Part shown: positions 18,392 through 26,121 of the stretch, piece by piece
How positions within the stretch are numbered: position 1 is the stretch's first letter
Layout: every line of letters begins with the position of its first letter
DNA from: Candidatus Saccharimonadota bacterium
GTDB lineage: Bacteria > Patescibacteriota > Saccharimonadia > CAILAD01 > BJGX01
Direction of reading: 5' to 3'
DNA: 37,302 bases
Assembly (NCBI GenBank): GCA_009691435.1
Contig: SICO01000003.1
Span: 1 to 37,302 of the forward strand
The notes under the pieces: generated by a model
Databases searched by the model: none
The model's input: the letters and a program-made list of their open reading frames with translations, nothing else
What the model was told of the DNA's origin: nothing
Translations under genes and position numbers: made by a program

Positions 18392-18478
18392 TGGTACCGG
18401 GAAGAGGACTCGAACCTCCACGGGTGTTACCCCACCAGTTCCTAAGACTGGCGTGTCTACCAATTCCACCATCCCGGC
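18392..18478 (-). tRNA. tRNA-Leu (anticodon UAG), CCA encoded
   Basis: Cloverleaf: acceptor GCCGGGA/TCCCGGT, D-arm GTGGAATTGGTAGACAC, anticodon arm CCAGT-CTTAGGA-ACTGG, long variable arm, GGAGG-TTCGAGT-CCTCT, ACCA. Confidence 0.97.
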
Positions 18479-21902: not shown

Positions 21903-23078
21903 TTAGCTAACCTGAATATTCTTATAGCGCCTTTTGCCCAGCTGTATTAAACAGTTTTTAGTTATCTTATGCTCGACGTCCTTTAATACCTCATCATCAA
22001 TTTTAATTCCGCCTTGAGCTAATAGTCGGCGGGCTTCAGATTTACTTAGATCAAAAGCAAGAGCAACAATACCGACAGCCAAACCTTTTTTAGTTTTAAA
22101 ATTTTCAATATCAGATGGCTTCTCGCCGGCCCTAAACTGATTTTCCCAAGCTTTTTCGGCCTTTAGGGCTGTTCTACTATCGTAGTAGCGAGCAACTACC
22201 GCGCGGGCGAGGCTGGCCTTGGTGTCACGTGGGTTATCGCCGAGCGACATAGTTTTTTCAATCTCGGCAATCAAATCCATCGGCATATCAGTTGCCATCT
22301 TATAGTACGCCGGTATCAGCTCGTCGTGGATGGTCATTACTTTGCCGTACATCTCAAGAGGTTTGTCATCAATGAAAATACAATTCCCCCAAGAAGTGCT
22401 CATTTTGCGCCCATCAGTGCCCTCTAGGATATGAAAAGTCATAATGTTTTGGGGTTCTTGCCCATAGGCTTTTTGCACGGTTCGGCCCGCTAACATATTA
22501 AATAGCTGGTCAGTACCTCCGACTTCTAGGTCAGTTTTCATCTGCACACTATCATAGCCTTGCAGCAAGGCATAGAGTGTTTCGTGTAAACCAACCGGCT
22601 TATTAGCCTCTATCCGCTTGGCGTAATTCTCGCGCTCAATCATTTGCTGAATCGTAAATAAGCTAGTGAGCTTAAAAAACTCATCTAGGCGCATCTTTTC
22701 AAACCAATCACCATTATGAAACATTTCTACCTTGTCCATATCAAGAATCTTTGAAAGCTGGACATGATAACTCTTGAAGTCCTCGGCCACTTCTTCTTTG
22801 GATAGCATCTTGCGCTCCGAGAGCTTATCGGATGAATCGCCAATCTGTGCCGTAAAAGTACCAGCCACGAATGTTACCTGATGGCCTAAATCCTGAAACT
22901 GACGGAGCTTCCAGAGGACTCCGGCGTGCCCGATGTGCAACCTGGCGCCAGTTGGATCAATACCGAGCTTAATGCGTAATTTCTTACCACTTTTTAGTTT
23001 TTTCTCTAGTTCACTGCGCACAATTAAGTCTTCTACATTGCGCGTCAACAAATCGTTTAGTATATCTTTAGATTTCAT
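21903..23078 (-). CDS. tyrS: Tyrosine--tRNA ligase
   Basis: KLGIDPT, HIGH, LQGYD, GGTDQLFN, KMSTS, C-terminal S4-like domain. Confidence 0.97.
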   Translation of the reverse strand: MKSKDILNDLLTRNVEDLIVRSELEKKLKSGKKLRIKLGIDPTGARLHIGHAGVLWKLRQFQDLGHQVTFVAGTFTAQIGDSSDKLSERKMLSKEEVAEDFKSYHVQLSKILDMDKVEMFHNGDWFEKMRLDEFFKLTSLFTIQQMIERENYAKRIEANKPVGLHETLYALLQGYDSVQMKTDLEVGGTDQLFNMLAGRTVQKAYGQEPQNIMTFHILEGTDGRKMSTSWGNCIFIDDKPLEMYGKVMTIHDELIPAYYKMATDMPMDLIAEIEKTMSLGDNPRDTKASLARAVVARYYDSRTALKAEKAWENQFRAGEKPSDIENFKTKKGLAVGIVALAFDLSKSEARRLLAQGGIKIDDEVLKDVEHKITKNCLIQLGKRRYKNIQVS

Positions 23079-23131
23079 ATTTTCCTCTAATAGTTAGTTA
23101 ATAAACAAATAATTTGCGGCTGAAGCAAGAA

Positions 23132-23188
23132 TCAGCCTTTAGGATACCGGCAATAGTAGTTCAATTTATTTGTTATTAATAAAGTCAT
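23132..23188 (-). CDS. Putative tyrS leader peptide, 18 aa, MTLLITNKLNYYCRYPKG
   Basis: Manual translation; three Tyr codons (TAC TAT, TAT); starts 9 nt after TGC-TATAAT; stop codon lies in the 5' arm of hairpin GGCTGA-8nt-TCAGCC. Confidence 0.55.
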   Translation of the reverse strand: MTLLITNKLNYYCRYPKG

Positions 23189-23197
23189 ATCTGTCAC

Positions 23198-23206
23198 ATT
23201 ATAGCA
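23198..23206 (-). promoter_or_regulatory. Extended -10 promoter for the tyrS leader
   Basis: TGC-TATAAT. Confidence 0.6.
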
Positions 23207-23258
23207 ATAATAGCGTTATATTGTAATCATACTTATGAATAATTTATTAACCAAGTCG

Positions 23259-23267
23259 TGATATAAT
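23259..23267 (+). promoter_or_regulatory. Extended -10 promoter for the PBP gene (divergent from tyrS)
   Basis: TGA-TATAAT 16 nt upstream of ATG 23284. Confidence 0.55.
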
Positions 23268-23283
23268 TTAATTTAATAAAGTC

Positions 23284-26121
23284 ATGGCAAAAAAACGCAC
23301 TAAGAAGTCAGCCAATTCGGCCCGTAGAATAGTCCGACATTCTACATCGGCTAGAAAGCGCAAATCATCTCCAGTAACCCCTCGAGCAAGAGGGCTTGCT
23401 AGGTTTCATTATAAAAATATCATTAGGGTCCTAACTACAAAAAAAGCCCTAAAAATTTATGGTGTCAGCATGGCAATTGGTGTACTGCTAGTAGCTGCGT
23501 TATTTTTATGGTTTGCTAAAGATTTACCAAGCCCTAATAAAATCAATTCTAGAGTAAGCGCACAAACTACCAAGATATACGATAGAACCGGCGAGAACCT
23601 ACTAATCGAAGTTTATGGGGATAAAAATAGAAGTATTATTGAATTTAACCAAATGCCACAATGCATCAAGGATGCCACGGTTGCCCTAGAAGATAAAAAT
23701 TTTTATAAGCAGGGAGCCTTTAGCCCAGCTGGTATTGCTAGAGCCTTCTCGGGAGTAATTTTTAAGGATCCCAGCAAAGGCGGCGGCTCAACTATTACCC
23801 AGCAATATGTCAAAAATGCCCTACTCACAAATGAAAGAACATTCACTAGAAAAATTAAGGAACTAATTTTATCAATCCAAATGGAACAACTGTATAAAAA
23901 GGATGATATTTTAAAACTATACCTTAATGAGATACCCTACGGGTCAACCGCCTATGGTATTCAGGCTGCATCTAAACAATACTTTGGTGTTGATGCAAAG
24001 GATTTAAGCTTAGCCCAGTGTGTTACGCTGGCCAGCCTTCCACAGGCCCCCACCTATTACTCTCCGTACGGGCAAAATAAACAGGTTCTACTAGATAAAA
24101 AGGATCATGTACTAGACTTGATGGTTGAACAGGGCTATCTCAAGAAAGAGGCAGCCGAAGAGGCCAAAACGGTCGATGTACTTGCTCAACTAAAGCCATA
24201 CAATCCCTATGCCAATATACAAGCTCCTCACTTTGTCCAATATGTTAGGGAGAAATTGGAAGAAAAATATGGCATTAAAAGAGTTAATGAAGGTGGGTTT
24301 AAAGTAATTTCAACTATTGACTTGCCAAAACAAAAGCTCGCCGAGGAAATCGTTGCAAAAAACATTAATTCTGTTAGAAACTATGGCGGTAGCAATGCAG
24401 CATTAGTCTCAGCCGATCCTAATAATGGTCAAATAATATCAATGGTTGGTAGCTATGACGCCAATGACCCTGATTTTGGTAGCTTTAATGTAGCGGTCGC
24501 CTTAAGGCAACCAGGGTCATCCATTAAGCCAATTGTTTATGCCAACTTATTCAAAAAAAATTGGGGGGCTGGTAGTACGCTATATGATGTCAAAACTGAT
24601 TTTGGAGGTATACCAGCCTATGTGCCTAGGAATTATACCAATCAATTCTATGGGGTTCAGTCGGTCAGAACTGCACTAGCTAGCTCCCTTAATATCCCCG
24701 CTGTTAAGGCCTTATACCTAGGTGGAATCCCAGAATTTATCGGTACCGCCAAGGATATGGGGATAACAACTTACAATAACCCCATAGATGAATATGGCTT
24801 GAGTATGGCGCTAGGGGCTGGCGAAGTCAAAATGGTGGATATGGCAAATGCTTTTTCGGCTTTCCCAACCAATGGCCAGCACCACGACCAAGTCTACTGG
24901 CTAAAAATTACCGATGGCTCTGGGAAGGTGATAGATGACAACACCAAAACAGATGATAAGAAACCTAAACAGGTCTTAGACCCCCAGATAGCCTATCAGA
25001 TAAATAGCATTATGTCTGATAACTCGGCACGCTGTAGCCTAGGCGTATTCGGCTGTAATAATCCCCTCACACTACCTGGTAAAACTGTAGCCTCTAAAAC
25101 TGGTACATCTGAAGAATATCGTGATGCCTGGACTATTGGGTTCACCAAGCGAGTTATTACTGTTGTCTGGGCTGGCAATAATGATAATGCGCCGATGGCT
25201 CAAGCTGCTAGTATTGTTTCTGCCCCAATTTGGAACCAGTATATGCGGGAGGTAACTAAAGATGACCCTAACGAGCAATGGGATAAGCCAAATGGCATTA
25301 AACAAGAGACTATTGACGCTAATACTGGTAAATCGCTGATTGAAGGCTCTAGACCCAGAACTGATATCTTCTCTAGCTGGTACCGCGTAGAGCCAGCTAA
25401 AAATTCACAGAAAGCCACCATTGATATAGTGTCGGGTAAGCTTGCAACTGATTGTACCCCCGCTGGTGCTAGAAAGGAGATTACTGGCTCACTTATAACT
25501 GCCGAGGTACTCCCGACTGATCCCTCCTACCCTAGGTGGAACCCTCCTGTTCAGTCTCTTGCTAGGACATTAGGATATGCGCAGGGCGGGAGTATCCCAT
25601 CTGAAAAAGATGATGTGCATCAGTGTGGAGACCCTCAGCCAGTAGTTTCAATTAGCACCTCTCCGACAACTGGCAGTACTTTTACTATTACTGCCTCTAC
25701 CACCCAAGGCAAATTCCCAATTAGCAATGTCGTGTTTTATATGGATGGTAGTGTGCTAACTACTAAATACGGCGCTGGGCCAACCTTTACAGCTACGGCT
25801 ACGCCATCGGCAGGTAATCATAGTTTTAGTGCCGTAGCAACAGACTCGGGCTACTATACCGGGACTAGCAATACAGCCTCGGTTACCGCGACAGGGGCCG
25901 GTGGGGCAAATTTAAGCTGCTTGGGAAGTACTTGTGACTTTACTTACACACTAGGCGCATTTAGCGTCCAACTACACGTGGGTGGTTCGCCGTTTGGCCT
26001 GGCCCAAGAGGTCTCCCCAGCTAATTGGACCAGTACCGGCTGGAATGGAGTTTCTGGTAGTAGTTCCAATCTTTATGCCAGGCTCAATACTGGTGGTGGC
26101 CCACAAACGATTTACCCTTAG
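23284..26121 (+). CDS. Class A penicillin-binding protein (transglycosylase-transpeptidase) with C-terminal Ig-like region
   Basis: Basic N-tail plus TM helix; EDKNFY, GGSTITQQYVKN, RKIKE; SSIK (SxxK), SLN (SxN), KTG; Thr/Ser/Gly-rich beta tail. Confidence 0.95.
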   Translation: MAKKRTKKSANSARRIVRHSTSARKRKSSPVTPRARGLARFHYKNIIRVLTTKKALKIYGVSMAIGVLLVAALFLWFAKDLPSPNKINSRVSAQTTKIYDRTGENLLIEVYGDKNRSIIEFNQMPQCIKDATVALEDKNFYKQGAFSPAGIARAFSGVIFKDPSKGGGSTITQQYVKNALLTNERTFTRKIKELILSIQMEQLYKKDDILKLYLNEIPYGSTAYGIQAASKQYFGVDAKDLSLAQCVTLASLPQAPTYYSPYGQNKQVLLDKKDHVLDLMVEQGYLKKEAAEEAKTVDVLAQLKPYNPYANIQAPHFVQYVREKLEEKYGIKRVNEGGFKVISTIDLPKQKLAEEIVAKNINSVRNYGGSNAALVSADPNNGQIISMVGSYDANDPDFGSFNVAVALRQPGSSIKPIVYANLFKKNWGAGSTLYDVKTDFGGIPAYVPRNYTNQFYGVQSVRTALASSLNIPAVKALYLGGIPEFIGTAKDMGITTYNNPIDEYGLSMALGAGEVKMVDMANAFSAFPTNGQHHDQVYWLKITDGSGKVIDDNTKTDDKKPKQVLDPQIAYQINSIMSDNSARCSLGVFGCNNPLTLPGKTVASKTGTSEEYRDAWTIGFTKRVITVVWAGNNDNAPMAQAASIVSAPIWNQYMREVTKDDPNEQWDKPNGIKQETIDANTGKSLIEGSRPRTDIFSSWYRVEPAKNSQKATIDIVSGKLATDCTPAGARKEITGSLITAEVLPTDPSYPRWNPPVQSLARTLGYAQGGSIPSEKDDVHQCGDPQPVVSISTSPTTGSTFTITASTTQGKFPISNVVFYMDGSVLTTKYGAGPTFTATATPSAGNHSFSAVATDSGYYTGTSNTASVTATGAGGANLSCLGSTCDFTYTLGAFSVQLHVGGSPFGLAQEVSPANWTSTGWNGVSGSSSNLYARLNTGGGPQTIYP

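Follow-up and report, generated by a model that had tools for sequence, protein, structure and literature searches.

A conserved tyrosine-codon leader upstream of tyrS in a family of Saccharimonadia: a candidate ribosome-mediated tyrosine sensor

The stretch of DNA analysed here, referred to as the window throughout, comprises 37,302 nucleotides (nt) from Candidatus Saccharimonadota bacterium (GenBank SICO01000003.1, assembly GCA_009691435.1) and corresponds to contig C20 of a genome of 560 kb in 38 contigs. On its minus strand, the gene tyrS coding for tyrosyl-tRNA synthetase (TyrRS) is preceded by a leader in which a short upstream open reading frame (uORF) with three tyrosine codons terminates inside a small RNA hairpin. 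The anatomy of this leader is conserved among relatives in a family of ultra-small Saccharimonadia, with respect to the open frame, the tyrosine codons and their distance from a covarying hairpin. In line with a proposal made in the initial annotation of this DNA, the leader might act as a ribosome-mediated tyrosine sensor with a translational output, a reading to which we assign a probability of about 0.45. Translation of the uORF, stalling of ribosomes at its tyrosine codons as well as the direction and the level of the output are inferred.

Anatomy and conservation of the tyrS leader

The features of the leader are given below in the direction of transcription, with the hairpin denoted P2 and the helix that encloses it in the minimum-free-energy (MFE) fold denoted P1.

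23198..23227, minus strand: tyrS promoter, with a -35-like ATTACA (23227..23222), an 18-nt spacer and a TG-extended TATAAT (23203..23198)
23189..23197, minus strand: initial transcribed stretch GTGACAGAT, the nine nt between the -10 hexamer and the uORF ATG
23132..23188, minus strand: uORF MTLLITNKLNYYCRYPKG*, 18 codons plus stop, with a leaderless-type start, its ATG at 23188 and its TGA at 23134..23132
23162..23184, minus strand: 5′ strand of closing helix P1 (uORF codons 2-9), predicted from the MFE fold
23153..23158, minus strand: Tyr-Tyr codons 11-12 (TAC TAT), 21 and 18 nt before the hairpin
23144..23146, minus strand: Tyr codon 15 (TAT), starting 9 nt 5′ of the P2 stem
23118..23137, minus strand: hairpin P2 (GGCTGA, 8-nt loop, TCAGCC), from the fold, with arms at 23137..23132 and 23123..23118
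23106..23117, minus strand: GCAAATTATTTG, conserved, directly 3′ of P2 and part of the 3′ strand of P1
23085..23116, minus strand: 3′ strand of closing helix P1, predicted from the MFE fold
23083..23088, minus strand: Shine-Dalgarno (SD) sequence AGAGGA of tyrS, read from the sequence, with the tyrS ATG at 23078
21903..23078, minus strand: tyrS, which heads a minus-strand gene run with recG as the next gene

The TG-extended -10 element, the 9-nt gap, the uORF with its three tyrosine codons, the hairpin and the SD sequence had already been described in the initial annotation, and each of them was recovered on the minus strand where it had been placed, including the position of the stop codon (23134..23132) inside the 5′ arm of the 6-bp hairpin P2. 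The uORF ends 53 nt 5′ of tyrS, and an AU-rich stretch lies between GCAAATTATTTG and the SD sequence. In the MFE fold, uORF codons 2 to 9 pair with the stretch following the hairpin up to the first bases of the SD sequence, the latter being paired with the uORF segment CUUUA, and thereby enclose P2; the energy of the folded leader is -20.9 kcal/mol (z = -1.95, with 9 of 200 shuffles equally good; z = -2.2 in a repeat run). Taken by itself, the window sequence is only suggestive, and its significance rests on the relatives.

The family to which the genome belongs is represented by 32 species genomes, 30 of which have tyrS, and the 5′ regions of tyrS were taken from all 30. To these were added a further genome record (L212) and two metagenome contigs (L065 and L132) carrying the promoter motif before tyrS. 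In a pattern scan of metagenomes yielding at least 118 loci, L065 and L132 were the only ones among the matches listed that precede tyrS; the remaining loci among those listed do not lie before tyrS and were dropped as chance matches. A homologous leader of 110-142 nt with a uORF is present in 16 of the 30 family genomes, representing 9 of the 11 genera, and in 3 further records. This amounts to 17 distinct uORFs with the two metagenome contigs included and to 18 with L212, and G002, which lacks the ATG, is the only long leader that was excluded before the frame count. All statistics given in the following count related lineages as independent.

In all 17 distinct leaders, no stop codon interrupts the uORF frame (frame 0) between the ATG and a point 6 nt 5′ of the hairpin; the same holds for frame +1 in 6/17 and for frame +2 in 5/17 (in total 11/34, or 32%, of the off-frames). 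In the lineages sharing the leaderless ATG, the last tyrosine codon before the hairpin lies 36, 39 or 42 nt from the ATG, and insertions and deletions thus preserve the frame of the uORF. Large ones are confined to the region 3′ of the hairpin, with the distance from the hairpin to the tyrS ATG ranging from 25 to 63 nt (mostly 36-42 nt).

In the other families of the order, the tyrS ATG itself is found 6-10 nt after the -10 hexamer in six of nine genomes (five families), and in the remaining three a -10-like hexamer lies 6 nt upstream of tyrS, as judged by eye only. Since the tyrS ATG is located just behind the -10 element in these remoter relatives, tyrS would ancestrally have been leaderless when transcribed from this promoter, and the uORF ATG would occupy the ancestral start position of tyrS. 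Within the genus, G005 has kept the promoter and the SD sequence and has a 64-nt leader with neither uORF nor hairpin, and in G002 the change of ATG to ATA is accompanied by mismatches in the hairpin and in a small second hairpin. These two cases of what appears to be joint decay of uORF and hairpin may be counted in favour of a sensor.

The same observations also bear on the hypothesis that the uORF is a neutral relic of an insertion which split the ancestral leaderless start from tyrS, the ATG being kept as part of the promoter and the frame and the tyrosine codons being due to chance. The position of the ATG at the leaderless tyrS start of the remoter relatives, the repeated loss of the element and the lack of significance of the window alone would all be compatible with such a relic. 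However, the frame that is open in every leader and preserved by the indels, the tyrosine enrichment with its fixed spacing described below, and the concurrent decay of the ATG and the hairpins in G002 make this hypothesis very improbable.

Leaderless gene starts look common in the genome of the window. Of 419 open reading frames (ORFs) of at least 150 amino acids (aa), 89 have a -10 hexamer whose end lies 5-10 nt upstream of their first ATG, with a sharp peak at 6-7 nt (32, 31, 12, 6 and 6 cases at 6, 7, 8, 9 and 10 nt, respectively, and a background of 2-8 per bin). An SD-like motif is present in 123 of the 419, and only 4 ORFs combine an SD-like motif with this placement of the -10 hexamer. 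Several other synthetase genes show the same leaderless layout by eye. With the -10 hexamer ending 9 nt before it, the uORF ATG lies within the leaderless range of the genome and thus has the placement of a genuine start codon, so that the nearly leaderless nature originally ascribed to the uORF agrees with the typical distance of such starts. Transcription is expected to start inside GTGACAGAT, which would give a 5′ untranslated region of 0-4 nt before the uORF.

Tyrosine is the commonest residue encoded by the uORFs, accounting for 38 of 293 codons (13%), with TAY triplets making up 20/276 (7.2%) and 12/276 (4.3%) in the off-frames. In the genome of the window, tyrosine amounts to 4.1% in 613 intergenic short ORFs and to 3.2% in the proteome; the enrichment over the intergenic null is thus about 3-fold and the highest of all residues. 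At least one tyrosine codon is present in all 17 uORFs (1 to 5 per uORF) vs 46% of the ORFs in the intergenic null. A conserved tyrosine-codon uORF, which the initial annotation had suggested looking for in relatives, does therefore exist in 16 of the 30 family genomes.

In addition to their number, the position of the tyrosine codons is conserved. Measured back from the first base of the hairpin stem, the distance to the start of a tyrosine codon is 8-9 nt in 13 of 17 leaders; in 16 of 17 such a codon begins at 5-11 nt, the hairpin limits having been set by hand for 4 of the 17 (the automatic limits gave -10 for L002 and other stems for L004, L010 and L016). In the window this is codon 15, the best-conserved codon of the uORF, and apart from the initial methionine and this pre-hairpin tyrosine the peptides cannot be aligned between genera. 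Tyrosine codons also undergo synonymous swaps (TAC TAT in G000 vs TAT TAC in G006; TAT TAC in L132 vs TAC TAC in L212), with the codons next to them showing non-synonymous changes, which points to a constraint at the codon level.

Asparagine is raised in the uORFs as well (26/293 vs 4.8% in the intergenic null), and so are, to some extent, serine and phenylalanine; the tyrosine losses noted along with the rise in asparagine are all changes to histidine. Queuosine-type tRNAs serve the NAY codons, which specify Tyr, His, Asn and Asp. The asparagine rise and the Tyr to His pattern may be a coincidence of AT-rich sequence.

These data have to be considered in view of a further possibility, namely that the leader is structured and its uORF translated without any sensing of tyrosine, its role consisting in unzipping, in translational coupling or re-initiation, or in an mRNA-stabilising hairpin. 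The tyrosine codons would then have come about as a side effect of AT-rich sequence and common ancestry. In accordance with this, what is conserved is the architecture (the open frame, the covarying hairpin and the closing helix), the number of tyrosines varies from 1 to 5, Tyr-Tyr is replaced by His-His in two species, Asn, Ser and Phe are somewhat raised too, and the distance of mostly 36-42 nt from the end of the hairpin to the tyrS ATG is compatible with a hand-over of ribosomes. Against it, tyrosine is nonetheless the most enriched residue, its codon stays 8-9 nt before the hairpin in 13/17 leaders while other codons drift, the TAT/TAC swaps speak for codon-level constraint, and the gene under control is just the tyrosine-specific synthetase. 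A leader of this non-sensing kind is accordingly regarded as unlikely, though deserving of serious consideration.

With respect to the hairpin, the 6-bp stem of P2 covaries among the 12 core leaders, with double changes at pairs 2 (GC/AT), 3 (CG/GC), 5 (GC/TA/CG) and 6 (AT/TA/CG), and a single A-C mismatch and one stem with a bulge were found among them. As a MAFFT alignment mis-registered the 5′ arms, a script counting from the base of the stem was used to tabulate the pairs. In the genera g2, g4 and g10 this place is occupied by other, longer stems, those of g2 and g4 being GC-rich and 10-12 bp long. In 16 of 17 leaders the stop codon is located between 2 nt before the hairpin and its 3′ arm, and in G014 it is found in the loop of a second hairpin. 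The motif (C)GCA(A/C)AT.ATTTG, with no T tract, follows the hairpin in most genera.

The 17 leaders also fold better than shuffled sequences (mean z = -2.04, with 9/17 below -1.64 and 16/17 negative), and the recurrent fold is that of the window, i.e., a closing helix formed by the uORF and the stretch from the hairpin to the ribosome-binding site (RBS) with P2 on top. Complementarity between uORF and RBS exceeds that of dinucleotide shuffles (p < 0.05) in 5 of 17 leaders, belonging to g7, g2 (two), g10 and g4, and that between the uORF and the whole post-hairpin/RBS stretch does so (p < 0.05) in 7 of 17. The tyrosine codons lie within the RBS-paired segment in g7, g10 and g4, and in g11 (p = 0.09).

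Alternatively, the leader could be bound by a trans factor such as TyrRS, another protein or tRNA-Tyr, with UAU/UAC serving as single-stranded recognition elements and not as codons. The location of the tyrosine triplets in a predicted single-stranded stretch between closing helix and hairpin, the conserved (C)GCAAAT after the stem and the S4-like RNA-binding domain of TyrRS are in line with this assumption. However, neither a T-box nor any other Rfam family matches the leader (see below), and the P2 loops are unconserved in the 12 core relatives, where inspection by eye revealed loops of 4-8 nt with varied sequence, no shared motif and no conserved anticodon-like loop as in a thrS-type operator. 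In addition, every triplet falls in the reading frame set by the ATG, and this frame is maintained open, neither of which a non-coding element would need, and there is thus little to recommend a trans factor.

Proposed mechanism and points against it

In the proposed mechanism, transcription would begin within a few nt upstream of the ATG at 23188, and 70S ribosomes would translate the uORF as a leaderless message. With charged tRNA-Tyr being plentiful, a ribosome would pass the three tyrosine codons, melt the hairpin on reaching the stop codon and leave the message, after which the leader would refold, the uORF pairing with the stretch between hairpin and RBS and the hairpin sitting on top. 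With charged tRNA-Tyr being scarce, the ribosome would wait at the tyrosine codons and, at the last of them, have the folded hairpin at its mRNA entrance. In this position it would keep the uORF strand from forming the closing helix, the AU-rich standby region and the SD sequence of tyrS would be left open, and more TyrRS would be made under tyrosine shortage.

Ribosomes unwind duplexes about 11 nt after the first base of the P site. By this geometry, a ribosome with the last tyrosine codon in its A site would abut an intact hairpin, and in a ribosome at the stop codon the hairpin would be melted. It is therefore tempting to speculate that this freshwater family of Saccharimonadia converted the ancestral leaderless start of tyrS into a tyrosine-sensing ORF, in which the sensing codon is set one ribosome-entrance distance (8-9 nt) before the hairpin holding the stop codon, and in which the hairpin survives only during the wait for Tyr-tRNA. 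This scenario is put forward tentatively and may well have to be revised.

The same sensor might instead act on transcription or RNA decay, by way of a pause, a NusA- or Rho-assisted terminator, or the entry or exclusion of an RNase. The ribosome geometry given above, according to which a ribosome waiting at tyrosine leaves the hairpin intact and one at the stop codon melts it, would suit such an output, as would the U-rich stretch that several lineages have from 6-9 nt 3′ of the stem onwards and the 10-12-bp GC-rich stems of g2 and g4. In the window, however, the 6-bp hairpin is followed by GCAAATTA with 2 T in the first 8 nt, in agreement with the earlier remark that a clean U tract is lacking, and a terminator scan of 22800-23600 on the minus strand called none. 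Terminator-like hairpins found 3′ of long ORFs in the same genome often have stems of at least 10 bp and an immediate T run; an intrinsic terminator was therefore rejected, and with P2 being so unlike the genome's own terminators, transcription attenuation at the tyrS leader is unlikely. Moreover, stalling would favour the hairpin and thereby reduce tyrS expression during tyrosine shortage, which is the opposite of known synthetase control. Taken together, a transcriptional or decay-based output appears distinctly improbable.

A number of findings weigh against the proposed sensor. First, the P1 duplex in the window (-11.5 kcal/mol, z = -1.44) is no better than shuffles (p = 0.10), and three or more tyrosines are found in 6.0% of 613 intergenic ORFs of 12-28 codons from the same genome, corresponding to p ~ 0.06 for the window alone. 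As these chance figures (6.0%, p = 0.10) are weak, significance must come from the relatives, and the lineages with a leader are akin, so that the counts overstate their independence. Second, in 12 of the 30 family genomes the leader is short or missing, the tyrS ATG being found 7-37 nt after the -10 element; the leader has thus been lost in many lineages and seems to be dispensable. Third, there are exceptions among the leaders themselves: in G015 and G042 the uORF ATG lies 22-23 nt from the -10 element with no clear SD sequence, G021 carries a Phe codon (TTT) at position -8, its single tyrosine codon being located in the hairpin loop, G003 and G001 carry CAC CAC (His-His) in place of Tyr-Tyr, and in G012 one tyrosine is changed to histidine.

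Furthermore, no similar cognate-codon uORF was found at other genes of the genome, neither in a genome-wide scan nor by eye at 13 synthetase ORFs whose amino-acid specificities are unassigned; the anticipated recurrence of such uORFs before other synthetase genes was therefore not observed at these ORFs. The scan for leaderless short ORFs before genes gave 23 candidates, one of them strongly biased (Phe, 6/13). This Phe-rich candidate was rejected because it runs antisense to a minus-strand ORF in which it is contained, at the end of a contig.

The masking of the RBS is also problematic. In the window, the uORF-RBS duplex has p = 0.85 (p = 0.10 with the wider target), and the RBS is modelled to be about 63% unpaired, regardless of whether and at which codon a ribosome is placed. 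When applied to all 17 leaders, the ribosome-masking model shows no consistent direction, and this thermodynamic model was dropped as support since no consistent effect on RBS accessibility emerged. For the window's own sequence, RBS masking is thus not supported by the modelling.

The pairings postulated in the initial annotation fared accordingly. The long-range pairing between the uORF and the downstream sequence does form the MFE fold, but in the window this duplex is no better than shuffles (p = 0.10). The competing pairing of TTGCCGG with CCGCAA is present in the window but already absent from the closest relative, L002, and was rejected as a conserved feature because relatives lack it. 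As regards the sensor as a whole, the preservation of the frame and of the tyrosine codons speaks in its favour, while the unconserved competitor, the absence of a modelled change in RBS access and the congeners with His-His do not.

Promoter, neighbouring genes and other regulatory RNAs

The tyrS gene encodes a protein of 391 aa with the Pfam domain tRNA-synt_1b (1.2e-68) and an S4 domain, which is the sole TyrRS match in the whole genome. Its leader sits in a divergent spacer of 205 nt, opposite a gene for a PBP1A-like transglycosylase that starts at 23284 on the plus strand. In a promoter scan, ATTACA-18-TATAAT scored 10 of 12 matches and has the TG extension (TGC-TATAAT). The -10 element and its flanks (TTGSTATAATGTGAC...) are near-invariant across the family, and TATAATGTGAC occurs only once in the 560-kb genome and is kept in relatives, even in those where it lies directly 5′ of the tyrS ATG. 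A repeat search showed the leader to be single-copy in the genome, and an origin from a repeat or mobile element was rejected as no second genomic copy exists.

Directly 3′ of the -10 element, a GTGAC that is unique in the genome is conserved family-wide (23189-23197 on the minus strand of the window; L017-L019 and L037 among the relatives). In genus g8 a perfect palindrome of 11 nt, ATGTGACACAT, takes in the last two bases of the -10 element and ends right in front of the ATG. The GTGAC and the g8 palindrome could represent an operator or a start-site element.

Further upstream in the spacer (23262-23276, minus strand), AAATTATA(T/C)CACG is conserved in relatives as well and, read on the plus strand, constitutes a TATAAT -10 element located 16 nt 5′ of the ATG (23284) of the PBP1A-like gene. 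As this element is conserved beside the tyrS -10 element, the spacer would harbour two divergent promoters back to back, both of them conserved. The 13-nt opening string of the uORF, ATGACTTTATTAA (23176-23188), recurs exactly 97 nt upstream (23273-23285, minus strand), where it overlaps the start codon of the PBP1A-like gene on the opposite strand; the second copy is found only in G000 and G004 and is absent from the other congeners. Downstream of the tyrS-recG run, a tRNA gene is located at 18395-18478 on the minus strand (Rfam RF00005, 55.1 bits).

Concerning known classes of regulatory RNA, no Rfam family, T-box included, matched the leader when 22900..23450 was searched at E ≤ 10, which substantiates the initial statement that tyrS lacks a T-box, and at the gathering threshold the whole window gave the tRNA at 18395-18478 only and nothing at the leader. 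Elsewhere in the genome, a T-box-like leader precedes a gene for a class Ia aminoacyl-tRNA synthetase of 972 aa (C13:20314-20527, minus strand; also L158:1501-1714). It covers the full length of the RF00230 model with a score of 37.9 bits vs a gathering score of 93 (E = 1.6e-7), and a genome-wide search with RF00230 yielded no match besides this C13 locus. The lineage therefore knows T-boxes, and none is used at tyrS.

A leader of about 190 nt before a gene for a 607-aa class IIa synthetase, which is the size of a threonyl-tRNA synthetase (C16:29718-29930, minus strand; L159), contains a long GC-rich stem followed by TTTTTG just 5′ of the SD sequence and has no Rfam match at E ≤ 1. Two other class IIa synthetase ORFs of 430 and 429 aa (C36:~11653, plus strand, and C18, minus strand) have near-identical N-termini and similar upstream genes, and could reflect a true duplication or two strains binned together.

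Significance and comparison with known systems

Patescibacteria do not make most amino acids themselves and are supplied with them by their hosts, and to our knowledge very little is known about regulation in this group. A full-text literature search, with supplementary files outside its reach, turned up neither a tyrosine-codon leader peptide controlling tyrS nor work on the translation of leaderless mRNAs in Patescibacteria. If the proposed reading is correct, neither a leader-peptide sensor for tyrS nor a cis-acting amino-acid sensor of the candidate phyla radiation would have been described before this leader, and its read-out geometry would be distinct from that of classical attenuators and mycobacterial Cys ORFs. 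It would also imply that reduced genomes retain homeostatic control of tRNA charging, here at the only TyrRS gene, that such control can be built from prevalent leaderless translation and not from a T-box, and that such sensors can arise simply when about 110 nt are inserted after a start codon that is already leaderless. The constant spacing from codon to hairpin would constitute a compact and testable design for stall-dependent RNA switching, for which the natural losses (deletion, ATG to ATA, His for Tyr) provide a ready-made series of mutants.

The usual control of tyrS in Firmicutes is exerted by the T-box riboswitch. The leader described here shares with it the position 5′ of tyrS and presumably the signal, i.e., the charging of tRNA-Tyr. 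Unlike the T-box, it is only about 110 nt long, has neither T-box sequence nor T-box structure and is proposed to be read by a ribosome.

In the translational attenuation of erm and cat genes, the RBS of the regulated gene becomes accessible once a ribosome has stalled at a leader peptide. Similarly, a ribosome held on the tyrS leader ORF would remodel the downstream RNA and free the RBS. The stall would, however, be caused by missing charged tRNA and not by a drug in combination with the nascent peptide, and the peptide encoded by the tyrS uORF is unconserved.

The pheM-pheST system of Escherichia coli is a leader-peptide transcription attenuator of synthetase genes. Leader-peptide attenuators have also been predicted for trpS2 and leuS of Streptomyces (PMC1262725). 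The tyrS leader resembles these systems in having a short leader ORF with cognate codons upstream of the matching synthetase gene, and the same homeostatic logic would be expected. In contrast to them, it has no terminator/antiterminator pair and no U tract, and its start would be leaderless instead of being led by an SD sequence.

The closest parallel is provided by mycobacteria, in which ribosomes stalled on leaderless poly-Cys ORFs block RBS-sequestering structures (bioRxiv 10.1101/834739). In both systems the first cistron is a short ORF, which in the tyrS leader would likewise be leaderless, with cognate codons near its end and no terminator, and in both a stalled ribosome is proposed to block a duplex that masks the RBS of the next gene. 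They differ in several respects. Only one such locus was found in the genome analysed here, and statistical support for RBS masking extends to only 5-7 of 17 relatives and does not include the window. Instead of a poly-Cys tract, the tyrS uORFs have 1-5 scattered tyrosine codons; the tyrS leader would sense tyrosine, and its target is the cognate synthetase and not a biosynthetic or uptake operon. Finally, a covarying hairpin that holds the stop codon and keeps a set distance of 8-9 nt from the last putative sensing codon is a feature of the tyrS leader.

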